Shown: positions 3,111 to 54,605, counted from the first letter of the stretch. The stretch is DNA of 55,982 nucleotides from Phycisphaera mikurensis (GCA_022730455.1 DZDI01000004.1:1-55982); one strand, 5' to 3'. Notes: generated from the sequence alone by a model not told the origin. Numbers and translations are program-made.

Positions 3111-6100
3111 ATGACGAAGAGCACCCAATTGCCACAAATTGTTGATACTTCAAGCCTTGTGCCGCCTGCAGTGAGCGATAGCGGTGAGTACTCGGACGCG
3201 ATTAAAGCCTTATTGGAAGTGGATGTGGGCGAAGTGCGACTTAACGCACTCGACCGGCGGCTGTACGCTACAGACGCTTCGAACTACCAGGTGGAGCCTC
3301 TGGCGGTGGTCATCTGTAAAACGCCGGAGCAGGTTTCTCGACTGGCGGCATTCTGCCAGAAATACCATCTACCGCTGCTGCCGCGGGGTGGAGGCACGAG
3401 CCTCGCCGGCCAATGCACCAACCGTGCAGTGGTGGCGGACCTGTCCGGACCCTTTCGGCAGATATTTGGTGTTGACCGCGACGGGCGGACTTGCCGAGTC
3501 CAGGCCGGCACCACCATTGACGACGTGAACAATTATCTCAAATCGCAAGGCGAGGATCTATTTTTCGCACCCGACCCGGCCACCTTAAGCCAAGCCACCA
3601 TTGGGGGTTGCATTGGCAACAATGCCGCTGGAGCCCGATCGTTGCGCTATGGCCGAACGAGTGAAAATATTACGACACTTGAGGCCGTGCTGGCCGATGG
3701 CACAATGGTTCAATTTGCACCGGGGGCGGGAAGAAGCAATCAGCGAGTTGCAGATCTGGCAACGGCTGTGGCAGCCGTGGTGCTTAAGCATCGGGAGACC
3801 ATACGCAGCAGGTTTCCACGTTTGAATCGGCGCAATGCGGGCTATGCGCTCGATATGATCCTCGATCAACTGGACGCGGGATGCCAACCCATTGATCTGA
3901 ATCTGGCACCTCTCATATGCGGCAGCGAAGGTACTTTGGCTATCGTCCTGGCGGCAACGCTTAAACTTTGGCCGACACCCAAAAGTCGCTCCCTGTATCT
4001 CCTGCGTTTTGCGTCCTTGGATGGCGCTATTGCCGCCGTGTCTCCTCTGTTGAAATTACATCCAACAGCCATTGAGCTCATGGACAATATGGTATTGCAG
4101 GCAGCCGCATTAAACACTGCAGCGACAGCCATCATGCATGAACTTGGCATAGTGAACCCCGCAGGCCAGAGTGCGGGGGCCGCAATAGCCGCCGTGTTAT
4201 TGGTGGAATTTCAGCATGATCGCGATGCCTCCGCCGACGCGGAACCGGGCGAACTGGAATCGCGAATGCGAGCCGTGGCTGGTGTTACAGACATGGAAAT
4301 ACTCGATGCACAAAAACAGTCGAGCGCATGGCAATTGCGGCGCAGCGCCGAGGCCCTGCTCCACGCATTTTCCGCCGATACCAAGCCTGTCACGTTCGTC
4401 GAGGACAACGCCATCCCCGTTGCGCAATTATCGCATTTTGTTCATGGTGTTGAAGAGATTGTTTCCCGGCACAACACATCGGCGGCATACTACGCGCACG
4501 CATCAGTAGGCGTTTTGCATATTCGCCCCCTGCTGAATTTGCATTCAGCCGACGGGCGCGAGGCCATGGTAAATATCGCTGTTGAAGTTGCGCGTCTGGC
4601 ACGCGATTGCGGCGGCGTGATGTCGGGTGAGCATGGTGACGGGCGTGTTCGAGGGCCTCTGCTGGAAGAGTTTTTCGGCTCCGAAATCATGGAAGCATTT
4701 GTCAAGATCAAACAGATTTTTGATCCGGCAGGAATATTAAATCCCGGGATGATCGTGGGCGCCGGCAAACCGGCTTCCATCGCGCAGCAGTTGCGATTCG
4801 ATCAGATAAGTCCGACGGCGGTATCGAAACTGCAGCCCATTTTCGATTACGCCGAACAAGGCACCTGGGTAGGGGCCGTGGAGATGTGCAACGGCGCGGG
4901 TTTTTGCCGCAAACTGGGCCCGGGAACCATGTGCCCATCCTATCGTGCCACACTTGATGAAAAACATTCTCCGCGCGGCCGGGCCAATGCCCTGAACTTT
5001 GCAATGCTCTCGCCGGTAGGCGAACCGAAACTCAATGACCCCGACACTCTTGCCACACTCGATTTGTGTCTGTCGTGCAAGGCATGCAAGACTGAATGCC
5101 CCAGCAATGTGGATATCGGGAAATTGAAGGCGGAGTATTACGCCGCGACGTACCGGGCGGTTGGGCATATTCCGCTGGCTGCGCAGTTTGTCGGCCGAAT
5201 CCGATTGCTGAATCAGCTCGCCAGCTACATGCCGCTGATTGCCAATGGCGTAACACAGGCCGGATGGTTTCGGCGGTGGATACTCCCTCGCCTAGGTATT
5301 ACGCCCGAGCATCCGCTGCCGCTGTTTCAAAAACACCTGCAACGGCGATTGCGACAAGCTGGGATTCCGAGCCGAAGACCGGGCCGTCCGTGCGTTGTAC
5401 TTTTTTTAGACTGCTTCACGGGTTATACCGATTCACCTGTTGGTGTGGCGGCAGTGAATCTGCTGCAGCGGATGGATTATGATATTGTCGTTGCCAATGC
5501 TGGCTGCTGCGGTAGAAGTATGATGTCCGTGGGCATGCTGGAAATGGCACGTGACACGGCAACCAGGACGCTGCGGCGATTGCATTCCTACGCCCGAGAG
5601 TTAGCACCGGAGGCGATTTTATTTTTAGAACCGTCCTGCCAAAGTGCGGCCATCGACGACTGGAAAGTTTTATTGTCCGCAGTTGATAGAGAGAAGCTCA
5701 CCTCCTTGCCACCCCTGCTTTCAGTTGAAGAATTTGTTGCCCGGAGAACGGATCTGCTGAAACACAATAAGCGCACGTCCGCGTTGATGACGCCGGTTAT
5801 CTTCCACGGCCACTGTCACCAGAAAGCACTTTGGGGCACGCAGGCGATGCAACAACTCCTGTCGCAATTCGCCGACGGTCACGGGCAGATTTTACCGACA
5901 GGCTGTTGCGGATTGGCCGGGGCTTTCGGATACGGGCTCAAGCGGTACGAAGTCAGCAAGGCAATATTTGCCGCACCGGAATTTGATCCCATACGCCGTT
6001 CCAATGAGACCGACATGATTCTGGCCAGTGGTACATCGTGCCGTGCACAGATTCGTCATCTATCCGGACGCAACGCGATGCATCCCGTTGAATGGCTCGA

Positions 6101-41392: not shown

Positions 41393-44300
41393 TTACGCAT
41401 TGGCGGTTTCACCGGCTACGGGCTCTAACCCGATTGGCGTTTCTCCTGGCAGGGTGGGAACTGCGATATTGGGTTCGATTTCGGCAACAGGGGTGCCAAT
41501 GTGGGCGATTTTCAATTGCTGATAAGGACGGAACCCGGTACCCGCCGGAATGAGGTGCCCCAAGATCACGTTTTCCTTTAAACCTTGCAGTGTATCTTCC
41601 CGGCTCGCAAGTGCCGCCTCAGTCAGCACCTTGGTGGTTTCCTGGAAACTAGCGGCCGACACAAACGATTCACTCTGCAAACTGGCCTTGGTGATACCCA
41701 AGAGCAGGGTCTTGGCTTTGGCCGGCTTAGCACGCCGCGTCTTGGGCGGCGTACCCCCCTTGGATTCGATTTCAGCGGCGACTTCCTTGGCCTGTTCGCG
41801 CGTCAACAGCTTGCCGATCGGCAGGCCACTGTCACCCGGCTCATCGATGCGAAGCATCTTGGCCGTTTCTTCATTAAGTGTCTGGAAGCGAAAGCGATCG
41901 ACCACTTCGGTCGGCAGACACGCCGTGTCGCCAGGATCTTCAATCCGCACCTTCCGCACCATCTGAGCGATGATGATCTCAATATGCTTGTCAGCAATAC
42001 GCTGATTTTGCGTACGATAGACATTTTGAATTTCCGAAAGCAGGTATTCCTGCAGTGCGTCCTCACCTTTGATCCGCAGAATATCCTGCGGCACAAGCGG
42101 CCCGTCAATAAGCGGATCGCCCGCTTCAACGGTATCTCCGGCGTGTACGCGCAACTGGCGATCCTGCGATACGTGGTGTTCGTGAGCGACATCGCCAGGC
42201 CCTTTAATAGTAATCGTCATTTTGCCGCGACGTTTGTCGGATCGCAGCTCAATGACACCTGAAATTTCCGCCATGATGGCTGTATCCTTGGGCTTGCGGG
42301 CCTCAAGAATTTCAGTGACGCGCGGCAGACCTGAGGTAATGTCAGACGTACCCTTGATTTCCCGAGGTTGGCGGGCAAGCAACGTGCCAGGCAAAACCAT
42401 CTGACCGGGTTCCACATCGATACGTGTCTTGGCCGGTACATAATGGAAATCCAATGTTTTGCCGTCCGCCGGATCAACAATATTAATACGGGGATGACGT
42501 TCGCCCCGGTGTTCGACGACCACGAGACGCCGGGTACCGCCCTTGCCTTCGCTTTCGGCCCGGACCGTTTCGCCTTCTTCGATGTCATCGAACTTCACCA
42601 TACCGGCTTTTTCAGCCAAGATGGGCGTGCGATGCTGATCCCAGGCGCAAAGTTGCTGGCCGGCCCGCACCGTGTCGCCGTTCTTGACATGCACATAAGC
42701 ACCGTACGGTACGCGATGTTTTTCAAGTTCGCGTCCTTTGGCGTCCTTAATGACCACATCGCCATTTTTCTTGAGGACGACCGTGTGCCGAACGCCTTCA
42801 CTGTCGGTGACATCAACGGCGTTAAGATCACCAAGATGCACAACACCGGCCACCGAGGCGCGCAATTCGTTTTTCTCGAGGATACGGGTTGCCGATCCAC
42901 CGGTATGGAATGTACGCATGGTAAGCTGCGTACCAGGCTCGCCGATGGACTGGGCGGCAATGATTCCCACAGCAAGGCCCTCTTCAACAAGGGTATTGCT
43001 GGAATGGTCAATTCCATAACAGCGGGCGCAAATGCCGCTCGGACTTTCGCATGTCAGCGGGCTGCGGACGCGCACAGTCTCAATATTAAGGGCTTCAATC
43101 TTGCGGGAAATCTCGGTGGTAATGATCTGCCCTTCAAGCACGATACTTTCGTCGGTGATGGGGTTCATCAAAGTATCAGCCGCACAACGTCCCACGATAA
43201 TATCGCGGAGAGGTACATCCACCTGGTCACCCTTGAAGACTGCTTGTTTGCGGATACCGCTTTGCGTACCGCAATCGTGCTCAGAGATAATGACATTCTG
43301 CGCCACATCCGCCAGCTTACGGGTGAGATAACCGGAATCTGCCGTCTTGAGAGCGGTATCCGCCAAACCCTTACGGGCACCGTGCGTTGAGGTGAAATAT
43401 TCCAACACCGACAACCCCTCACGGAAGTTGGTCTTGATGGGCGTTTCCATGATTTCACCAGAGGGACGGCTCATCAAGCCACGCATACCAGCAAGCTGTC
43501 GGAAATTATCGACATTACCGCGGGCCCCCGAGTCGGCCATAAGGAAGACGGGGTTAAGGTAAGGCGCACCGGACGGATCCTTCGGCGGAAGCGGTGCCAA
43601 GCTGCCAGCCTGACGAGTGTCATGCTCAAGTTCATTCATCATTTCCTTGGTGACTTCCTCGCGGGCATGAGCCCAGATATCCAGCAACTGGTTGTATCTT
43701 TCACGTTCAGTGATGGCGCCCAAATTGAGATTTTTCTCAACGCGGTCGGCCTTTTTCTGGGCTTCTTCAATAATCTGTCGTTTTCTGGCGGGGATGCGCA
43801 GATCCGTTATACCGAAACTCAAACCAGCCAGAGTGGACATCTTGAAGCCGAGTTCCTTCATATCGTCCAGCAGGGAAATCGTCGCGGGTCGACCAAGATG
43901 CTGGTAGCAGTCTGCGATGACGCGGCTACCCCCTTTGCTCGAGAGTGTATAATTGTAAAATGGCATCTGCGGCGGCAGAATGTCGTTGAACATGCACCGC
44001 CCGACGGTCGTCACGATAACGCGCGAAGACGGGGTTGGCTCAGCCCCTTTGCTCTGTCCGGTCACGACCGCTCGACGGTCAATGCGGACTTTGATGCTGG
44101 TATGGATGCCAATAACTTTACGATGGTACGCCAGCAGGGCCTCGGCATAATCACGAAAGGCCATTTCCTGACCGGCCGGGCGTTGGCCGGCCTCTCCGCC
44201 GAGTAAGGCGGTAATGTAATAAATACCCAATACAATATCCTGCGACGGCCCGATGATCGGCGAACCATTGGCAGGCGAGAAGATATTGTTGGTGGAAAGC

Positions 44301-45736
44301 ATCAGCAGATGCGCTTCGGCCTGGGCCTCGATGGAAAGCGGCAGATGCACCGCCATCTGGTCGCCGTCAAAGTCGGCATTAAAGCCTTTGCATACCAGCG
44401 GGTGTACCTTAATGGCATTGCCTTCAATCAGCACCGGTTCAAAAGCTTGAATGCCGATGCGGTGCAGGGTCGGAGCACGGTTAAGCAGAACCGGGTGACC
44501 TTTGATAACCTCTTCCAGAATATCCCAGATTTCCTGGTCGCGGCGTTCAATCATTTTTTTCGCTGCTTTGATGGTGTCCGCCAGTCCGTGCTCTTTAAGT
44601 TTACGGATAATGAACGGCTGGAAGAGTTCGAGTGCAATTTTCTTGGGCATGCCGCACTGATGCAGTTTAAGTTCAGGTCCGACGACGATAACCGAACGGG
44701 CCGAATAATCCACGCGCTTACCGAGAAGATTTTCGCGGAACCGGCCCTGTTTGCCCTTGATCATGTCCGTCAACGACTTCAATGGTCGATTGGATGAACC
44801 AATCACGGGACGACGGCATCGGCCGTTATCGAAAAGCGCATCAATGGACTGTTGAAGCATGCGTTTTTCATTGCGGACAATGACTTCCGGGGCGTTGAGG
44901 TCCTGGAGCTTCTTGAGACGATTGTTACGATTAATAATCCGGCGGTAGAGGTCATTGAGATCGCTGGTGGCAAAATTACCCGATTCCAGCAGAACCAGCG
45001 GGCGCAGATCCGGCGGGATGACGGGGATGACGTCGATAATCAGCCAGTCAGGTTTATTATGCGATTTACGCAGCGCCTCAATGATACGAAGGCGCTTTGA
45101 CAGATCCTTTAATTTCTGTTTGCTGCGTGTCTCACTGATGCCCGTGCGCAGATTGATCGACTCCAGCTCCAAATCCAGCTTACTGAGCAGAATTCGGATC
45201 GCCTCAGCACCCATATGCGCTTTGAACGCGTCGCCAAACTTTTCGCGTGCATCGCGGTATTCTTCTTCCGTTAAAAGTTGGCGTTCCTTCAGCGGGGTTG
45301 AACCGGGATCGGTCACAATGTGGTCTTGATAGTAAATGACCTTTTCCAAGTCGCCAGTTTTCATGTCCAGCAAATTGCCCAAGCGGCTCGGACTGTTTTT
45401 GAAAAACCAGATGTGTACAACCGGGGCCGCAAGACCGATGTGCCCCATGCGTTTACGACGTACGCGGCTGTGCGACACGCGAACACCGCAACGATCGCAA
45501 CTGGTACCCTTGAATTTGGTCCCGCGGTATTTGCCGCAGGCACATTCATAGTCACGTTCTGGACCAAAAATACGTTCGCAGAACAAACCGTCCCGCTCGG
45601 GACGGTAAGTGCGGTAATTGATGGTTTCCGGCTTCTTAACTTCGCCGAAGCTCCAGGACGTAATGTCCTTGGAACTCGCGAGCGATATTTTCACCGACCT
45701 GAAGTCATTTACTTTGTCCCAAATGGGTTCCGCCAT
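41393..45736 (-). CDS. rpoC: RNA polymerase beta' subunit
   Basis: [42 protein letters not shown]. Confidence 0.99.
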
Positions 45737-45829: not shown

Positions 45830-48800
45830 TTATCTGCCGTCCGCGCCCTTTGCATCGGTCTTAGCATCCAGCGGCAAATCGCCATCACGATCTTTGCTAA
45901 GCACCATATTCAAGCCCAAGCCTCGAATTTCGTTTACAAGCACATCGAAGGAAACCGGTGTGCCGGCTTGAAGGATGTTGGTGCCTTTGACCATGCTTTC
46001 GTAAATCTTGGTACGCCCATCGACATCGTCAGATTTAACGGTGAGCAATTCCTGCAGCACGTGCGCCGCTCCATACGCTTCCAGTGCCCAGACTTCCATC
46101 TCTCCGAAGCGTTGGCCACCGGTACGCGCCTTTCCACCCAACGGCTGCTGTGTGATAAGGCTGTAGGGGCCGGTGGATCGGGCGTGAATCTTTTCATCCA
46201 CCAGATGGTGAAGCTTCAGCATGTACATGTAGCCGACGGTTACACGTTGTTCAAACTGCTCACCGGTGCGTCCGTCAAATAGCGGCACCTTGAGTGATTC
46301 CGGCATTTCGACGAACATTTCGACCGGCGATGGCGCCTCTTTTTTGTCTTTTAACTCTTTGAGCCGATGACGCACATGGGCGTTGGCCTCGGCTACCGCC
46401 TGATGGATTTCCTCCTCGGCGGCGCCGTCAAACACCGGCGTGACGGCCTGGAAACCCAAAATTGCGGCTGCCCAGCCCAAATGCGTCTCTAAAATCTGCC
46501 CGACGTTCATACGCGAGGGGACGCCCAGCGGATTGAGTGCAATATCGACCGGAGTGCCATCTTCCAAAAACGGCATATCCTCTTCAGGCACAATACGGGC
46601 GATGACACCCTTGTTTCCATGCCGTCCAGCCATCTTATCGCCGACCGACAGGGGACGCTTGGTGGCGAGATAAACCTTCACCATTTCCAGCACGCCTGTC
46701 TGTAGATCATCGCCGTTTTTCATGCGATCGCGCTTGCGGTCACGTTCTTCCTTGAGGTTTTCCAAGGTTGGCTTATAGCGGGCCCAGATGGCTTCACCTG
46801 TCTGGCGCCCCTCATCGCTGCCTTTGATCCACTTCGGCGAGAAGGAATCGGCCTGCTCGCATATGACCTCATCATCGTCATTTTTACCCACCTTTTGTTT
46901 GGTGGTCGGGTCGATCATTACCTGCCCGGTCGCGACGTTGATTTCCTCCGCCATCGTGCGGAACAACGCTGCAATGCGGCCGTTCATCTCAGCATCAAAC
47001 TCTTTAATATCTTTTTGAAGTTGCTTTTTCTGATCATCATTCAGTTGTCCGCGACGGGCAAAATGATGCGCTGCGATGACCACGCCTTCCGTGCCGGCCG
47101 GCACTTCCAGCGAGTCATTCTTAACATCTTCACCGGCGCGACCGAAGATGGCATGCAGTAACTTTTCTTCAGGCGAAAGCTCGGTTTTGCTCTTGGGGGA
47201 CACCTTACCTACGAGTATGTCGCCCGCCAACACATGCGTACCAATGCGAACAATGCCGCGGTCATCGAGATTCTTAAGCGCCTTTTCACTGACGTTGGGA
47301 ATGTCGCGGGTAAATTCTTCCCGTCCCAGCTTGGTCTCACGCACTTCCACATCAAATTCTTCGATATGGATGGACGTAAAGGTGTCATTTTTAATAAGCC
47401 GCTCGTTGACCACAATGGCGTCTTCAAAGTTGTAGCCGTCGAAAGTCATGAACGCCACAAGCACATTGCGCCCGAGCGCCAGTTCACCCTGGCGGCAGGC
47501 GGGGCCGTCGCCAATGATCTGTCCCTTTTTGACTTTTTGCCCAATCGAGACAATGGGCTTTTGCGTGAGACACGTTTTATCGTTAAGGCCCGCGTTTTTA
47601 CGCAGCCGATACTCATCCGAATTGTCAATGACAATCCGCGTACTGTCTACATAAGTAACGGTTCCGGCACGCTCTGCACAAATGACCATACCACTGTTGG
47701 CTGGCACATGTTTTTCCAAACCGGTGCCGACGACCGGTGGCTCGGTAATGAGCAGCGGCACGGCCTGGCGTTGCATGTTGGAACCCATCAAAGCACGGTT
47801 GGCGTCATCGTGTTCAAGGAAGGGGATCAGGGCAGCGGAAACGGCAACCAACTGCTTCGGCGAGATATCCACATAATTTACGTCGCTGCCGCGCACCTGC
47901 TGAAGGTCGCCGTTCTGGCGGGCGAGTATTAAATCTGTGCGTACCTCATGCGTTTTGGGATTGACGACTTCCGGCGGAGCCAGAATCGCCTTCATTTCCT
48001 CATCGGCACGCAGGTACCGGGTATGGCCGTTAACCTTGCCATCTTCCACCACGCGATACGGGGTAATGAGAAAGCCATACTCATCAACGCTGGCGTAGAT
48101 GGACAGCGATGCAATAAGCCCGATGTTGGTACCTTCAGGGGTTTCAATAGGGCAGATGCGGCCGTAGTGGGAAATATGCACATCGCGTACTTCATACCCG
48201 GCTCGTTTACGGTTGAGACCGCCAGGCCCCAGAGCCGAGAGTCGGCGTTCGTGCGTAAGCTGGGCAAGCGGATTGGTCTGATCCACCACCTGCGAGAGCT
48301 CACTGCGACCGAAAAAATATTCAATCGAACTGCTGACACTTTTGGTGTTGACCAATTCCACAATCTTGGTGATTTCCTCAAGCGCCTTCGAGGAGAGCCG
48401 ATCGGTCACCGTCCGCCGCAATTTCAAAAATCCCTTGCGGAGCTCTTCCTGAGCCAATTCATCAATCGTACGCAGACGACGATTGCCGAGATGGTCAATG
48501 TCGTCTATGTATCCATTGCCGGCCCGCAGGTCCAGCATGTATTTGATCGATCCCACCACGTCTTCAGACCGCAGCGTCATCACGTCTTCGGGCACATTTT
48601 GTTCAAACTTGCGGTTGATACGAAAACGCCCCACGCGTCCCAGCCGATAGCGGTTGGTATCAAAAAATCTTTCAGTGAAAAGTGACTTGGCCTTGTCATC
48701 ATTGGGCGGATTGCCGGGCCTCAGCCGGAGATAAATCTTCTTCAACGCGTCTTTGTGGTTGATGGAATCATCTTTGGCCAGCGTGTTAAGGATCAGCGGA

Positions 48801-49624
48801 TCATTGACTTTTTCAATGACTTCGATCTTTTTAAGATTGCCCGACTGTATCTTGGCGATTTTCTCACCAATCTGAGATCCGGACTTCAGCAATTCCTCGC
48901 CGGTTTCGGGGTCTACAATGGCACCGACGGTGTAGTAGTCCGCTTTAAGCTGCCCGACGGAAACCTGCCGCGTTTCGTAAAAAGCGCGGATGATGGCCTC
49001 GTTTTCAGAATATTTTTCATCCAGCGCCCGTAGAAAACTGGTAGCCGCAATTTTACAGGTCTTATCGATACGGACTTCCAACGTGTCCTTTTTAGTGACC
49101 ACGATTTCAATCCAACTGCCGCGTTCCGGTATGACCCGGCAGGCATGCAGCGGGCGATCACTTTCATCGGTTGCGACCAAAAAGTCCACACCCGGTGATC
49201 GGTGCAACTGGGAGACAATAACGCGCTCGGCACCATTGATGATAAATTCACCGCCGCCAGTCATAATCGGCACGTCACCGAGGTAAATACTCTCGTCATG
49301 TATATCGGGTTTGTCTTTTCGCACCAGCCGCACGCGTACCCGAAACTGCATGCCGTAGGTCAGACGAAGCGCCCGACATTCATCCATGGAATATCGGGGG
49401 CGGCCAAGTTCATAGCTGACATATTCGAGGCGCATGGCGTGGTCATTGGATTCAATCGGAAACACTTCGCGGAGTAAGGCCTCAATACCTTCGTTTTTGC
49501 GCGATTCCGGATCCACATCCAGTTGCAGGAATCGCTTGTATGCCGCCGTCTGCACCTCAATGAGATTTGGAATTGGAGCGGCATCGCCACGCTTTGAATA
49601 ATTACGCACCTGCGTGATACGCAT
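45830..49624 (-). CDS. rpoB: RNA polymerase beta subunit
   Basis: [44 protein letters not shown]. Confidence 0.99.
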
Positions 49625-49866
49625 CAGTCACCTCAGCCATCGTGTCAAGAAAAAAATCGTCTTTAAGGTCAAAATCGCGAATTCAAAAAACGCCACCCGG
49701 TTGCAATGTTCTTCACCCTCATGAAGATGCGAGCTAAACACTGCCCGTTGATACATCCAGCATCACCCCCGGGCATTCGCGGGGAACACAGCCTCCGTCG
49801 GCAGCGAGCGAGTTAAAATTAAATGTTGATCGTCAATGCTTCCTGTCGGGTTAGTCATAGCTTGGT

Positions 49867-49895
49867 ATATTAGGCGTTCGGATATGAAAACGCAA
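49867..49895 (-). promoter_or_regulatory. Putative sigma70 promoter for rpoBC
   Basis: TTGCGT-N17-TAATAT on the minus strand, ~240 nt upstream of the rpoB ATG. Confidence 0.6.
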
Positions 49896-49914
49896 GTCCC
49901 CAAATAAACGACCA

Positions 49915-49944
49915 TTGACACCCCCGGTTCGTTCGGGTTATATT
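49915..49944 (+). promoter_or_regulatory. Putative sigma70 promoter for the leader-rplAJL transcript
   Basis: TTGACA-N18-TATATT. Confidence 0.7.
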
Positions 49945-49950
49945 ACCGGG

Positions 49951-50437
49951 CTGCACTGCACCCAACCACTGGTCAGTGACCACGATTGTAACGTGGTGGA
50001 GCGCATATCCAAAATCACCTGCGAGGGTGAGGATGTGCACCCCGCGGCGTTGGATGGTTTCAGGGGCCTTTGCCCCTCTCAACCATCAGATTGCCCGGGA
50101 GCTGTGGAAGCCACTGTTGCCGGTTTACCGGCGGCGGGATGTGTAACCGAGCGGCTGCAGGTATCCATGTGCCCTATGGCAGCGGGATCACCGGGGTCGC
50201 ACCAGACGACAGCCGTTAAGGCAGTTGAATTGCGGTTCACAGGCGGCCTGTGAAATTTTCCGCGTTGCGACGGGACGGCGATTATGTTCCGTCAGATGTT
50301 CAGCGGATTCATCGGCCAAGCCATCCAGCCGTTGATAACAGGCCCTGTTGCAGGGCCTGTGTCGTCCAGCGATAAAGTGGTGGAATTTTTCAGTGCCTCT
50401 GACTTGCACGCACTTGAGGTTCAGGAGTTTTTCATTT
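49951..50437 (+). ncRNA. Long structured leader / candidate ncRNA upstream of rplA
   Basis: About 9-10 consecutive hairpins with G-U pairs favouring the + strand; no credible protein. Confidence 0.55.
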
Positions 50438-51151
50438 ATGGCCATCAAAATCCACGGAAAGCGCTATCAAGCCGCTGCCAAGCTGGTACCCAGCGCACCA
50501 GTGAGTATCGAGCAAGCTGTGCCGATACTCAAACAGCTCAAGGCCGCCAAGTTTGACGAATCAGTCAATCTCGTGGTGCTTTTGGGTATAGACGCCAAGC
50601 AGGCCGATCAGGCGGTTCGTGGGTCAGTGAGTTTACCCAAGGGCATCGGCAAAACCAAAAAAGTAATTGCGTTCGTCCAAGGTGCCAACGTGGAAGTTGC
50701 CAAGGCGGCAGGCGCAGCAGAGGCGGGAGCGGACGAACTTGTCAAGCGGGTTAGCGACGGGTGGCTGGACTTTGACGTGGCCATCGCCACGCCGGACATG
50801 ATGCCCAAAATAACGCGATTGGGTAAGGTGCTTGGGCCACAGGGCAAAATGCCAAGCCCAAAGGCCGGCACCGTGACCGCTGATGTAGCAACGGCGGTAC
50901 GTGAATACGTGGCTGGAAAAATCGAATTTCGCAATGACGCGGGCGGTAATATCCACGCTGCCATCGGCAAGTTAAGTTTTCCGGAAGGTGACTTGGTTGC
51001 GAATATTCACTCATTTATCGATCATATTCGACGCCTTAAACCCGCCACCTCCAAGGGTGTTTATATCCGGAAGATCACGGTGCACAGCACCATGAGCCCC
51101 GGAGTGCAAATTGATATTGGCCATCTGTCGGCACCGGCCGAAGCGAGTTAA
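50438..51151 (+). CDS. rplA: 50S ribosomal protein L1
   Basis: AKFDESV, VRGSVSLPKGIGK, LGKVLGPQGKMPSPKAGTV, STMSPG; AGGAG RBS. Confidence 0.98.
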   Translation: MAIKIHGKRYQAAAKLVPSAPVSIEQAVPILKQLKAAKFDESVNLVVLLGIDAKQADQAVRGSVSLPKGIGKTKKVIAFVQGANVEVAKAAGAAEAGADELVKRVSDGWLDFDVAIATPDMMPKITRLGKVLGPQGKMPSPKAGTVTADVATAVREYVAGKIEFRNDAGGNIHAAIGKLSFPEGDLVANIHSFIDHIRRLKPATSKGVYIRKITVHSTMSPGVQIDIGHLSAPAEAS

Positions 51152-51226
51152 GCGCGGCAGTCGGATGGCTCCTGCCAAGCTTAAATTGGTGATTGCTTTA
51201 GCCAGCTTTACTTTTAAGGATATACA

Positions 51227-51766
51227 ATGAGTAAGCGAATTAAAAACTTAGTCGCAAAAGAACTCGAAAAACGCCTCGATGGAACGGAAAGTCTGGTCGT
51301 AATTGATTACATCGGCATCAGTGCCAATGACGTCAATAAACTGCGTACTGGACTGCGACAGAAAAAAGTCCGCTTGACCGTCGTACCCAACAGTCAAGCC
51401 AAACGAGCGTTTAAGACGGTTGGGCTAGGCGCGGCAGGCTCATTGCTCGCTGGCACCAACGCGCTGGTGTACGGTGGCGAGTCCATCGTGGATCTGGTCA
51501 AAGAATTGGTCAGCTCCAAAAAAGACATTCAAAAGCTTGTGATCAAAGGATCTTTGGTTGAAGGCCAGTTTCTGGATGCTTCCGCTACGGAAGCTCTGGC
51601 CAAGATGCCCAACAAACGGGAACTCAAAGGGCAAATTGTCGGCCAAGTGCTTGGGCCCGGCCGAAAATTGGCTGGCCAGGTTATTGGCCCCGGATCAAAT
51701 ATCGCGGGCATTGTCAAAGCGGTTATTGAAAAACGAGAGAAGGAGACTCCGGCGGCCGCCGCCTGA
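51227..51766 (+). CDS. rplJ: 50S ribosomal protein L10
   Basis: IDYIGIS...LRTGLR...VVPNS...ALAKMPNKREL; lies between rplA and rplL. Confidence 0.95.
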   Translation: MSKRIKNLVAKELEKRLDGTESLVVIDYIGISANDVNKLRTGLRQKKVRLTVVPNSQAKRAFKTVGLGAAGSLLAGTNALVYGGESIVDLVKELVSSKKDIQKLVIKGSLVEGQFLDASATEALAKMPNKRELKGQIVGQVLGPGRKLAGQVIGPGSNIAGIVKAVIEKREKETPAAAA

Positions 51767-51906
51767 ACCAACACGGTGGACACATATACCGCATGAATTT
51801 AATAGATGTTTTGTTTTGATCGATTAGAGCCTGCCTTGAGCAGTTAAAACGAGGCGCGTTGCCTTGGCTGTAACCGGCAAACAGGAAAAAGGAAAGGTGT
51901 ATTACC

Positions 51907-52305
51907 ATGGCAGAATTTGCTGCTGAAATCACGGAACTTGGCGATAAGATCGTCGCCCTCTCGCTGCTGCAAGCTCGTCAACTCAGCGATTATCTCAAAG
52001 AGAAGCACGGCATTGAGGCTGCCGCTGGCGGCGCAGTCATGATGGCTGCCCCGGCAGGCGGAGCCGCGGCCGGTGAGGCCAAGGCTGAAGAGCAGACCAC
52101 GTTTGACGTGGTGCTTAAGGCGGCTGGCGAAAAAACCATTCAGGTCATCAAGGTGGTTCGCGCCGTCACCAATCTGGGTCTGAAGGAAGCCAAGGAATTG
52201 GTTACCGCCGCACCCAAAGTGGTTAAAGCTGGCGTGGACAAGGCCGAAGCTGAAAAGCTCAAAAAGGAGCTTGAGGCCGAAGGCGCAACCGTCGAGCTTA
52301 AATAA
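51907..52305 (+). CDS. rplL: 50S ribosomal protein L7/L12
   Basis: Ala-rich hinge, [31 protein letters not shown]. Confidence 0.99.
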
Positions 52306-52770: not shown

Positions 52771-53243
52771 CAAAACGCGATTTTATTAACATAATTCATT
52801 TTGATACAACATGATATATTTTTCACCGCGCAACGGGGCAAGAATGAATTGGCGCTCGATGAGTGCTGCAGCATCTGCCATTGTGACAGGTAAAAGCGCC
52901 CGATTCCGCGCTCATAATACACGTTTCACAGGTAAATAAAATTGCAATTAGCGCAGGATAAACAATCGAATGAGACTTATGCCCGCTGGTTTGATACGAT
53001 AAGGGCAGCGGCGCAGTCGGCCAGATACCGATGGCAAAGTTTTTTGAAGGCTGCTTTTTTGCACGTTGTATTGGAAGTTGAACGCAATTCTTCAAGGCAT
53101 GGACGCCATCACGGCGGGTACTGCTTCAAAATAAATAGGTTCAATGGGCCGTCGAATGGCGGTGCTTATGTTGTTCCGCAGGCAGCTATTGGGTCGATAA
53201 TACCAACAGGCGGCAGCGGGTTTGTGTATGGAGCCACGAATTG

Positions 53244-54605
53244 ATGCGCGATTCCTCAAAGCAGAAAAAATATTTTGTTCTGGACACCAGCGTTCTGCTG
53301 CATAATCCGGCGGCGCTGTTTTCGTTTGATGACAACGAAGTGGTCATACCGTTTGATGTACTTGAGGAACTCGATAAATTCAAAAAAGACACCAATGACG
53401 TGGGCCGTAATGCCCGGACGGTGATTCGTCATCTCGACCAATTGCGGCAGAAAGGGCATTTAAGCGAGGGGGTGGAATGGAACGGCCACCACGGGTTGAT
53501 CCGCGTGGCAATGGAGCACACCAGCGTACCGAGCCTGAGCGAAGCGGTGCCGGACAACCGGATCATAGCGGCGGCGTGGCGGCTGAAGCAAGAAAACAAG
53601 CCGGTGATATTCATCAGTAAGGACATTAACGCACGCATTAAATCGGACGCGCTGGGCATTGCGGCGGAAGATTATGAATCGCAAAAGGTGGATTACGAAT
53701 CGCTCTACTCCGGTTTCCGTGAACTGGAGGTGGAAAGTCCAGTCATCGAGCGGCTTTACAACGAAAAGCGGTTACCCCTGGCCAGCACGTTTCTGGGCAA
53801 GCTGGACCCGCCGCTGTCACCCAATGAATATGTATTATTTAAAAATGTGGATGCGCCGGATGACGCCAGCAAGACGGGCTTGGCCCGATATGTACCATCC
53901 ACCGGGTCCGTACTGGCCTTGACGCGGATGAAAAAGGCCTGCTTTGGCATATTGCCGCGGAACGTTCAGCAGATTATGGCGCTTGATCTGCTGCTGGATG
54001 ACGACGTACAGATGGTTACGTTGATGGGCACGGCGGGTACGGGTAAAACCCTGCTGGCCCTGGCCGCCGGCATGACCAAATGCTTCAATGAGCAGCGTTA
54101 CGAGCGGTTGCTGGTGGCGCGGCCGATCATGCCGCTTGGAAAAGATATTGGTTTTTTGCCCGGCAGCAAGGATGAAAAGCTGGCTGCGTGGATGCAACCC
54201 ATATTCGACAACTTGGAGTTTTTGCTTACTGATCGGCGGGTGCATTCCGCGGAATCTGCGAACGTTGAAGCTAAATTAAAACAGTTGGTGGAAACCGGCA
54301 AAGTGGTGCTTGAGGCACTGACGTATATCCGAGGCCGCAGCATTCCGCATCAGTTTATGATTGTGGATGAAGCACAAAACCTGACACCGCATGAGATCAA
54401 GACTATCGCCAGCCGGGTGGGTGAAGGCACAAAAATTGTGCTTACCGGCGACGCCGAGCAGATTGATAACCCCTATCTGGACGCCAATTCCAATGGGCTC
54501 TCGTTTACGATTGAAAAATTAAAAGCGTCGGATTTGGTGGGACACGTCACACTGGAAAGGCCGGAGCGCAGCAGCCTGGCCACGCTGGTGGTCAAAGAGC
54601 TTTAA
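53244..54605 (+). CDS. PIN-PhoH (PhoH2/YlaK-like) protein
   Basis: PIN FVLDTSVLLH...EELD...DNRI...SKDIN; P-loop GTAGTGKT; YIRGRS; DEAQN; TGD. Confidence 0.93.
   Translation: MRDSSKQKKYFVLDTSVLLHNPAALFSFDDNEVVIPFDVLEELDKFKKDTNDVGRNARTVIRHLDQLRQKGHLSEGVEWNGHHGLIRVAMEHTSVPSLSEAVPDNRIIAAAWRLKQENKPVIFISKDINARIKSDALGIAAEDYESQKVDYESLYSGFRELEVESPVIERLYNEKRLPLASTFLGKLDPPLSPNEYVLFKNVDAPDDASKTGLARYVPSTGSVLALTRMKKACFGILPRNVQQIMALDLLLDDDVQMVTLMGTAGTGKTLLALAAGMTKCFNEQRYERLLVARPIMPLGKDIGFLPGSKDEKLAAWMQPIFDNLEFLLTDRRVHSAESANVEAKLKQLVETGKVVLEALTYIRGRSIPHQFMIVDEAQNLTPHEIKTIASRVGEGTKIVLTGDAEQIDNPYLDANSNGLSFTIEKLKASDLVGHVTLERPERSSLATLVVKEL

Follow-up and report, generated by a model that had tools for sequence, protein, structure and literature searches.

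Autoregulation by ribosomal protein L1 is among the few ribosomal protein feedback loops that are common to bacteria and archaea, and the small site that it uses is hard to trace. A 2024 review (PMC10931766) describes the L1 sites in messenger RNA (mRNA) as mimics of the L1 site on 23S ribosomal RNA (rRNA). The mRNA consensus given in the supplement to Fu et al. (2013; PMC3616713) comprises a P1 helix of GUGG paired with CCAC, a 5′ GA bulge, a hairpin P2, and a 3′ bulge rich in G, U and A. The same publication describes the site as a stem of 6-12 base pairs (bp) with an internal bulge, lying before rplK, before rplA, or before both, and places that of Methanococcus vannielii before rplA in an rplA-rplJ-rplL operon, with rplK located elsewhere. 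A canonical element is characterized by nanomolar binding of L1 that is lost on G-to-A changes in the bulge. We have studied the leader of an rplA-rplJ-rplL operon in a stretch of 55,982 nucleotides (nt) of DNA from Phycisphaera mikurensis (GCA_022730455.1, DZDI01000004.1:1-55982), the whole of which is referred to here as the window. We think it probable that this is an L1 autoregulatory leader, in which the operator has been split into two parts and displaced from the ribosome binding site (RBS).

How does this leader compare with the described sites? Our comparison of the window with the Fu et al. consensus was made by eye and not with the authors' own model. Positions 50104-50139 read GTGG AA GCC...GGC GGGA, in agreement with the core sequence: GUGG, two bulged purines, a hairpin whose first pairs are G-C and C-G, and a 3′ bulge led by G. 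As in the rplKA leader of Escherichia coli, GUGG, the two-purine bulge, the hairpin and a 3′ bulge rich in purines and U precede the L1 gene; the GTGG at 50104 lies on the plus strand between a promoter and the rplA ATG, 334 nt upstream of the latter. However, the CCAC that follows the 3′ bulge in the canonical element is absent. The window has AACCGAG after the tail, and only one relative (the locus L001, introduced below) has CCCAC at this place. Here a CCAC is offered by the loop of an upstream hairpin instead of by the strand after P2, so that its pairing with GTGG would create a pseudoknot, a permutation of the known site.

The scale is different too. Known sites are stem-loops of 30-50 nt at the RBS of rplK or rplA, whereas in the window 134 nt separate the two halves and the operator is 290 nt from the Shine-Dalgarno (SD) sequence. 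The initial annotation of this DNA had remarked that L1 leaders are short. That premise is right, and a split operator about 290 nt from the RBS is unusual in this respect.

The operon of M. vannielii, as PMC3616713 outlines it, resembles that of the window in its gene set, in the leading position of rplA, in having an L1 site (putative in the window) in the leader, and in having rplK elsewhere. Its site directly precedes or overlaps the rplA start and has the form of a simple stem interrupted by an internal loop, whereas the leader of the window is much longer. We regard the likeness as convergent, here in a bacterium. The L20 leader belonging to the infC-rpmI-rplT operon in Bacillus subtilis, a transcription-attenuation leader of about 200 bp according to the account in PMC1865079, is likewise long and structured, with the ribosomal protein site far from the regulated start codon; in contrast to it, no terminator/antiterminator pair was identified in the leader of the window. 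No description of a planctomycete L1 leader was found in Rfam 15 or in full-text literature searches, and the words rplA, Planctomycet and uL1 are absent from a 2020 survey of ribosomal leader candidates.

A compact motif upstream of rplA in related genomes

The L1 protein of the window is phycisphaeral, with named matches to Phycisphaerae and to metagenome-assembled genomes of Phycisphaerales. L1 proteins at 81-89% identity were found in the protein search. A scan of one genome per species provided 80 related Phycisphaerae/Planctomycetota loci. The eight of these that are nearest to the window, L001-L008, encode L1 proteins of 72-89% identity.

A recurrent compact motif was found upstream of rplA in this collection. 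Its first element is a helix, S1, of 3-4 bp around an 8-nt loop NNACCACG (the NNACCACN form, closed by CC/GG). It is followed by an A-rich linker of 8-18 nt, which is lengthened to 26-39 nt in L009, L013, L030 and L042 by inserted hairpins of 20-35 nt; evidently the linker tolerates insertions. Then come GTGGGA, or sometimes GTGGAA, a P2 hairpin that opens with G-C and C-G pairs, and a tail of G, purine, purine.

The motif is closely tied to rplA. The pattern CCAC, 5-45 nt, GTGG[GA]AG has 43 matches in 623,178 nt examined on both strands (1.25 Mb searched). Of these, 30, from 30 of the 80 loci, are on the coding strand and no more than 420 nt upstream of rplA. A covariance model, R1, built from 23 compact instances gave 32 matches at E ≤ 0.1 when the 80 loci and the window were searched, every one of them on the rplA (plus) strand and immediately upstream of rplA. 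Nine of the matches fall outside the training set (L030, L061, L043, L013, L042, L009, L073, L057 and L037).

Both local helices of the motif covary. Three of the four S1 pairs change on both sides, with 96% of cells paired compared with 26-47% when the strands are slid, and the same is true of four of the six P2 pairs, with 89% of cells paired compared with 23-51%; for each helix, none of 500 shuffles reached the observed score. The P2 test used a MAFFT alignment that had not been fitted to the structure. An independently anchored test of P2 gave pair 3 in 24/29 and pair 4 in 19/29, with slid values of 11-17 and 7-12, respectively. CCAC and GTGG are invariant in 23/23 family members, and a CCAC downstream of P2 was not found in any compact instance inspected.

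By analogy with the L1 site, the motif can be read as an H-type pseudoknot. This implies that its second stem would be the P1 helix, and that the same surface would be built in permuted form. In the canonical loci the tail lies 4-30 nt before the ATG (a GGAG tail at 4-9 nt being the SD sequence) or the ATG lies inside P2, and this is the geometry expected of a translational operator. We would class the phycisphaeral motif as a topological variant of the L1 autoregulatory element already known, and the leader of the window as a divergent, split and displaced member of the phycisphaeral family. If so, the same protein-binding surface seems to have been constructed with a different strand topology at the level of a phylum.

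Several variations were observed within the family. In L010, L011, L012, L017, L019, L030, L031, L034, L046, L054 and L071 (~3985-4030) the GTGGGAGC of the motif is found 7-11 nt before the rplA start, and in this subgroup of 11 loci GGGAG probably serves as the SD sequence. The ATG and the first codons are within P2 there, which makes coding sequence a part of the operator. The rplK-rplA spacers of L011, L017, L022, L035, L043, L054 and L080 are 259-394 nt long, with the motif, where present, at the 3′ end. Variant members of the motif occur at L073:3936-3989, L057:2865-2917, L037:1835-1856 and L022:2030-2065. L057 and L037 have GTGGCA in place of GTGGGA, and P2 in L073, L022 and L037 opens with C-G or G-C and then U-A, providing extra covariation at the first P2 pairs. 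Rfam searches of the compact relatives returned only tRNAs in 16 loci at gathering cut-offs, and only chance matches, on the other strand, in L028 3500-3720 at E ≤ 10; no Rfam model matched either the compact motif or the window.

In five of the loci nearest to the window, L004-L008, the compact motif directly follows an own promoter and lies 98-276 nt ahead of the ATG. Their layout is that of the window (own promoter, motif, rplA-rplJ-rplL and no rplK), and these loci link the compact and the split states. One clade thus presents a graded series, with the operator on the RBS, 70-230 nt away from it, or split and 300 nt away. The series is a natural experiment in the survival of an operator that mimics rRNA through the break-up of its operon, with loss of rplK and inversion of rpoBC.

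The two halves of the motif in the window

Is the leader of the window a member of this family? It is preceded by a sigma-70-type promoter (Table 1) that agrees with the consensus at 11 of 12 positions and is the sole sigma-70-like site in 49400-50700. Both boxes are kept in the closest orthologs, the loci L001-L003, and L004-L008 show boxes similar to TTGACA/TATCTT. To judge from the position of the promoter, transcription would start at about 49951, which places 487 non-coding bases before the ATG of rplA at 50438. Seven open reading frames (ORFs) of 41-112 amino acids overlap the leader, and none has a Pfam match at or above cut-off.

We aligned the leader with those of L001-L003, a subgroup of four orthologs. 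Conservation is confined to the -35 box, the -10 box together with 49940-49979, the segment 50100-50149, and the SD/start region. Invariant columns number 14-16/20 in 49940-49979 and 13-14/20 in 50100-50149, and 11 of about 21-29 in the SD/start region, compared with 0-5/20 elsewhere. If the promoter and the SD/start region are set aside, the sole conserved islands are the two halves of the motif, at 49954-49978 and 50104-50148.

The 5′ half is a hairpin with an 8-nt loop, CAACCACT (49963-70), which carries CCAC at 49966-49969 and matches the NNACCACN loop of the family closed by CC/GG. One of its pairs is U-A, U-A, C-G and G-C in the four orthologs. The 3′ half begins with GTGGAA, where L001-L003 read GTGGGA, and continues with P2, whose inner stem is invariant in the four orthologs, and the purine-rich tail. 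An alternative register of P2, 50114-50137, is possible; this is the stem that had been annotated initially. From its complementarity, and by analogy with P1, we infer that CCAC 49966-69 pairs with GTGG 50104-07 as a pseudoknot. After its tail, L001 has a CCCAC that would be able to pair with GTGGG in the canonical topology.

Three hairpins, HA1-HA3, lie between the halves, and HA3 contains an exact inverted repeat (50053-59/50081-87). Their sequence is unconserved (3-5/20 columns), while their pairing is kept, with compensatory changes in 15/29 pairs. When S1, HA1-HA3, P2 and the pseudoknot are taken together, 93.9% of cells are paired compared with 36-45% on sliding, 16/49 pairs change on both sides, and 0/500 shuffles do as well.

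The family S1 loop, the islands containing GTGG, P2 and tail, and the covarying inserts lead us to read the leader as the operator of the family with its linker grown to 134 nt. Like the compact motif, the window has the S1 loop NNACCACN with CC/GG, followed by GTGG[GA]AGC, P2 and a G-purine-purine tail, on the strand of rplA. It differs from the compact motif in the 134-nt linker with its three hairpins, in a longer, bulged S1 stem, and in a tail that is not the SD sequence. The divergent rpoB that is common to L004, L007 and the window supports the orthology of its operator by synteny. The assignment is based on island conservation, synteny and feature-by-feature agreement, and not on a significant model score.

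Table 1. Features of the rplA leader and its surroundings, in window coordinates
Feature	Position	Strand	Details
Sigma-70-type promoter	49915-49944	+	-35 TTGACA 49915-49920; 18-nt spacer; -10 TATATT 49939-49944
S1 hairpin (5′ half of the putative operator)	49954-49978	+	CACTG 49954-58/CAGTG 49974-78; CC 49961-62/GG 49971-72
Three variable hairpins between the halves	49979-50087	+	HA1 49979-49999; HA2 50001-40; HA3 50053-87; from the minimum free energy fold
GUGG strand, GTGGAA	50104-50109	+	Proposed pairing with CCAC 49966-69, then two-purine bulge
P2 hairpin	50110-50135	+	Outer GCC/GGC; 6-nt bulge ACTGTT; inner GCCGG/CCGGC; loop TTTA
Purine-rich tail GGGATGTGTAACC	50136-50148	+	3′ side of the proposed L1-binding bulge; in island 50100-50149
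Fast-evolving structured spacer	50149-50396	+	Includes perfect hairpins 50236-50254 and 50338-50360
Imperfect helix partly pairing the SD, with SD and start codon	50397-50440	+	Minimum free energy fold; helix 50397-50427; SD AGGAG 50423-50427; ATG 50438-50440
Presumed regulated operon rplA-rplJ-rplL	50438-52305	+	Pfam matches, spacers, common strand

A number of observations weigh against this assignment. Since CCAC and GTGG never vary, the proposed pseudoknot receives no support from covariation. The separation of 134 nt between them compares with linkers of 8-39 nt in the family, and the compact pattern has no match in the leader of the window, the required spacing of 8-45 nt between CCAC and GTGG not being present. 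GTGG has rival partners in a local CCAT (50083-86) and, in L001, in the downstream CCCAC. The structure test in the subgroup used four sequences only, with a structure derived by RNAalifold from the same alignment. R1 gave no match to the window copy with default filters, and with filters off it gave 3.2 bits (E 0.18 in 561 nt) with a different local helix. The best leader match of a second model, R2, was at 50098-50140, in the expected register, with a weak score of 8.5 bits (E 0.016 in 490 nt); a larger R2 search gave 14.9 and 8.9 bits at two unrelated places in the window. Members of the family score 14-63 bits with the family model, compared with these values of 3.2 (R1) and 8.5 (R2) for the window copy. 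GTGG[GA]AGC alone is not rare, occurring twice on the plus strand of the window. Finally, the operator is about 290 nt from the SD, a forced operator fold gave no consistent change in the accessibility of SD or AUG across nine leaders, and the sole candidate in a terminator scan of the plus strand of the leader was a weak one at 50263-50280, with the hairpin 50236-50254 unreported.

R2 also matched the orthologous places of L001 (9.3 bits, E 3.6) and L003 (8.5 bits, E 5.6) in a search of 179 kb. Two other pairings were considered and set aside. The CCAT at 50083-86, suggested by R1 as the partner of GTGG, was judged less likely because it sits in the 3′ strand of the covarying HA3. A long-range pairing proposed by RNAalifold, between GTGGGAGCCA and sequence that precedes the SD, is made up largely of G-U pairs, and no pair in it changes on both sides.

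How might such an operator function? The rplA-rplJ-rplL genes would have lost rplK and their usual upstream neighbors and gained a promoter of their own. The promoter-proximal hairpin would present CCAC in its 8-nt loop, and GTGG 50104-50107 would pair with this loop to give a pseudoknot helix equal to P1 of the L1 site, while the two-purine bulge, P2 and the purine-rich tail would complete the mimic of the rRNA site. L1 present in excess of free 23S rRNA would then bind the operator and lower the expression of its own operon, so that binding and repression at this leader are what we infer for the window. In most relatives, where the motif is compact and the tail is the SD sequence or the start codon lies in P2, L1 would block initiation directly. 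In the lineage of the window the linker of the pseudoknot would have grown into the three covarying hairpins, and a folded but unconserved spacer of ~290 nt would part the operator from the RBS. Our guess is that occupancy by L1 here would alter the fate of the transcript, by Rho-dependent termination or RNase attack, or else the co-transcriptional folding of the SD helix, instead of occluding the RBS directly. It is plausible that dense folding shields the long untranslated RNA from Rho and RNases. If regulation at such a distance persists, it would point to a second mode of action for L1. The full proposal, i.e., a working but permuted operator that takes its CCAC from the promoter-proximal loop, forms a pseudoknot over a 126-nt insertion of three hairpins, and acts from ~290 nt upstream without direct occlusion, is a tentative one that we find on balance doubtful.

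Folding of the leader and the nature of the spacer

The leader is extensively folded. The minimum free energy (MFE) of 49951-50445 on the plus strand is -218.8 kcal/mol, compared with -187.0 ± 6.1 kcal/mol for 100 dinucleotide shuffles (z = -5.22), none of which was as good. The z-score of the minus strand is -3.60, and the stronger signal of the plus strand fits an RNA read from that strand. For 19 control windows of 490 nt, one every 2.5 kb, the mean z was -0.51, with a standard deviation of 0.90 and a minimum of -2.50. By sub-region, z is -3.96 for 49951-50103, -1.89 for 50104-50150 and -2.96 for 50151-50437. The stems 50338-50360, 50236-50254 and 50053-50087 are exact inverted repeats; those at 49979-49997, 50001-50040 and 50114-50137 are present by direct reading or in the MFE fold. 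The long leaders of L001-L003, in rpoB-rplA intergenic regions of 818-842 nt, also fold strongly, with z of -5.68, -3.20 and -3.15. The leaders of L004-L006 and L008 are shorter, with z of -2.7 to -3.4, and that of L007 (135 nt) has z = -0.4.

Searches for known RNA families were negative. Rfam 15 gave no match in the whole window at gathering cut-offs, and in 49500-50600 at E ≤ 10 gave only two chance-level eukaryotic matches (E 0.14 and 2.7); ARAGORN found no tRNA or transfer-messenger RNA in the leader. No repeat family of the window involves 49951-50437, beyond an inverted match of 20-24 nt at chance level, and there are no tandem repeats in the leader. A known RNA can be discounted on these results, as can, within the window, a miniature inverted-repeat transposable element (MITE) or a repeat of the repetitive extragenic palindromic (REP) type, no further copies being present. 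A degenerate remnant of rplK or another coding sequence was rejected in view of the seven Pfam-negative ORFs and of a negative tblastn search of the window with L11.

Much of the initial annotation has withstood this analysis. It had noted the near-consensus promoter, some 490 non-coding nt ending at 50437, and the succession of stems, and had proposed a large cis-regulatory RNA tied to the synthesis of ribosomes or RNA polymerase. The promoter, the non-coding stretch and the stems are upheld, the folding lying well beyond that of shuffled and control sequences, as is a long structured cis-acting leader tied to ribosomal protein synthesis; the leader matches no Rfam family, tRNA or transfer-messenger RNA. 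Its alternative of an independent non-coding RNA has not fared so well, since no convincing terminator was found in the scan between the leader and rplA. The MITE that it had named as a possible explanation has no copies in the window. Nor is the leader unrelatable to anything known, because its islands match the halves of a motif present at 32/80 loci and its core matches the L1 consensus. The expectation of structural conservation among relatives was borne out for the two islands and the three covarying hairpins, but no consensus structure was recovered for 50149-50396.

A large regulatory RNA of a new kind, such as a riboswitch or a sensor of another protein, in which the L1-like core is coincidental or one module among several, would be in keeping with the lack of any Rfam match, the very strong folding signal, the three covarying hairpins at 49979-50087 of unassigned role, and the conserved length of the downstream spacer. 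However, no conserved sequence resembling a ligand pocket lies outside the halves of the motif, no consensus structure was obtained for 50149-50396, and the compact motif persists in relatives of the same clade whose leaders measure just 135-310 nt. We consider such an RNA quite improbable.

The spacer between the operator and the RBS evolves fast. Only 0-5/20 columns of 50149-50396 are invariant among the four orthologs, and about 60% of the leader (50149-50410) is unconserved even between genomes whose L1 proteins are 87-89% identical, a further point against the undescribed system envisaged in the initial annotation. A conserved structure for 50149-50396 was sought and rejected; helices of the MFE fold are retained in relatives about as often as slid controls, and the consensus folds of sequence pairs, at -35 and -40 kcal/mol, are weak. 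The distance from the tail to the ATG is nevertheless held at 302 nt in the window and 298-322 nt across the four orthologs.

Could the leader be mostly a relic of rearrangement, left when rpoBC was inverted and rplK removed? On this explanation, the principal rival to an L1 leader, it would be largely a structured and protective spacer in which the L1-like motif is vestigial. The unconserved 60%, the poorly kept helices and weak consensus folds of 50149-50396, and an operator that no longer touches the RBS all agree with it, as do the family models that barely score the window copy and the lack of a consistent effect of the operator constraint on the SD. In contrast, the halves of the motif are the best conserved parts of the leader (13-16/20 columns compared with 0-5 elsewhere), which argues for ongoing selection. 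Moreover, compensatory changes have preserved the pairing of the three inserted hairpins, z is between -3.2 and -5.7 in each of the four long orthologous leaders, and the distance from operator to ATG is steady. We judge a largely vestigial leader to be unlikely.

A different possibility is an attenuator of transcription controlled by L1, in which binding would favor a terminator hairpin in the leader as in ribosomal protein leaders of Bacillus, the B. subtilis infC operon being the precedent (~200 bp in the description of PMC1865079). L004 and L007 have hairpins followed by U-runs just after the operator, and the perfect 9-bp hairpin at 50236-50254 in the window is followed by AAATTTTCC, with only four T in a row. 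Against this, the terminator scan reported the weak candidate at 50263-50280 and not 50236-50254, the candidate hairpins are unconserved in L001-L003, and the U-tracts are short. Attenuation seems very unlikely to us. The reading as an L1 autoregulatory leader with a split and displaced operator is the one that we retain.

The initial annotation had also described the SD as buried, and this is true in part. The sequence is partly paired in the helix 50397-50427 of the MFE fold, but the predicted probability that it is free of pairing, 0.29 in the window, varies between 0.03 and 0.82 among eight relatives. An allosteric effect of the operator on the SD was rejected, because forcing the operator fold in silico moved this probability in the window only from 0.29 to 0.34. 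A switch of the ACCAC loop to a GTGGT-like stretch 45-70 nt before the ATG was likewise rejected as a conserved feature. The corresponding duplex was better than shuffles only in L001 (fraction 0.007) and L005 (0.027), was borderline in the window (0.107) and L002 (0.093), and was no better than shuffles in L003, L004, L006, L007 and L008.

Genomic setting of the operon

In the window rpoC (41393-45736) and rpoB (45830-49624) are on the minus strand and rplA-rplJ-rplL on the plus strand, with a divergent gap of 813 bases between rpoB and rplA. Pfam identifies rplA (50438-51151) as Ribosomal_L1 (1.4e-60), rplJ (51227-51766) as Ribosomal_L10 and rplL (51907-52305) as Ribosomal_L12. The spacers of 75 and 140 nt and the common strand suggest that the three genes are co-transcribed. 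The rplA-rplJ spacer (51152-51226, 75 nt) matches neither the Rfam L10 leader nor another family, so that a feedback site for L10/L12, if present here, is unrecognised by Rfam. Codon 6 of rplA (50453-50455) is CAC (His) in the window and CGC (Arg) in all eight close relatives, and creates a CCAC just after the start codon in the window.

The leader occupies the usual place of rplK, as had been noted initially. A homolog of L11 was not found anywhere in the window (best tblastn E 3.5), while in 69 of the 80 related loci rplK precedes rplA on the same strand; it is missing from this place in the window clade L001-L008. A fragment of L11 was observed on the minus strand at L004:8472-8687, ~4.5 kb downstream of rplA and 53% identical to the L009 protein over residues 68-139 of the latter, suggesting that rplK has been relocated in this clade and not lost.

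Most of the 80 loci have the canonical order, with rpoB after rplL on the same strand. The divergent rpoB of the window is common only to L001-L004 and L007 among them. The upstream region of rpoB at 49625-49914, presumed to contain its leader and promoter on the minus strand, has 75% identity over 364 nt to L001, a degree of conservation above that of most of the rplA leader; a sigma-70-like promoter for rpoB was not found on the minus strand of 49400-50700. At L008:3357-3650, just upstream of the rplA promoter region, there is an ORF fragment that starts with a basic helix-turn-helix-like stretch. It resembles the first ORF found in IS3-family transposases, a hint that the point of rearrangement may hold a mobile element. 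Downstream of the ribosomal protein operon in the window, 53241-54605 encodes a fused protein with a PIN domain and a PhoH-like ATPase (Pfam PIN_4, 5.8e-34, and PhoH, 1.2e-45).

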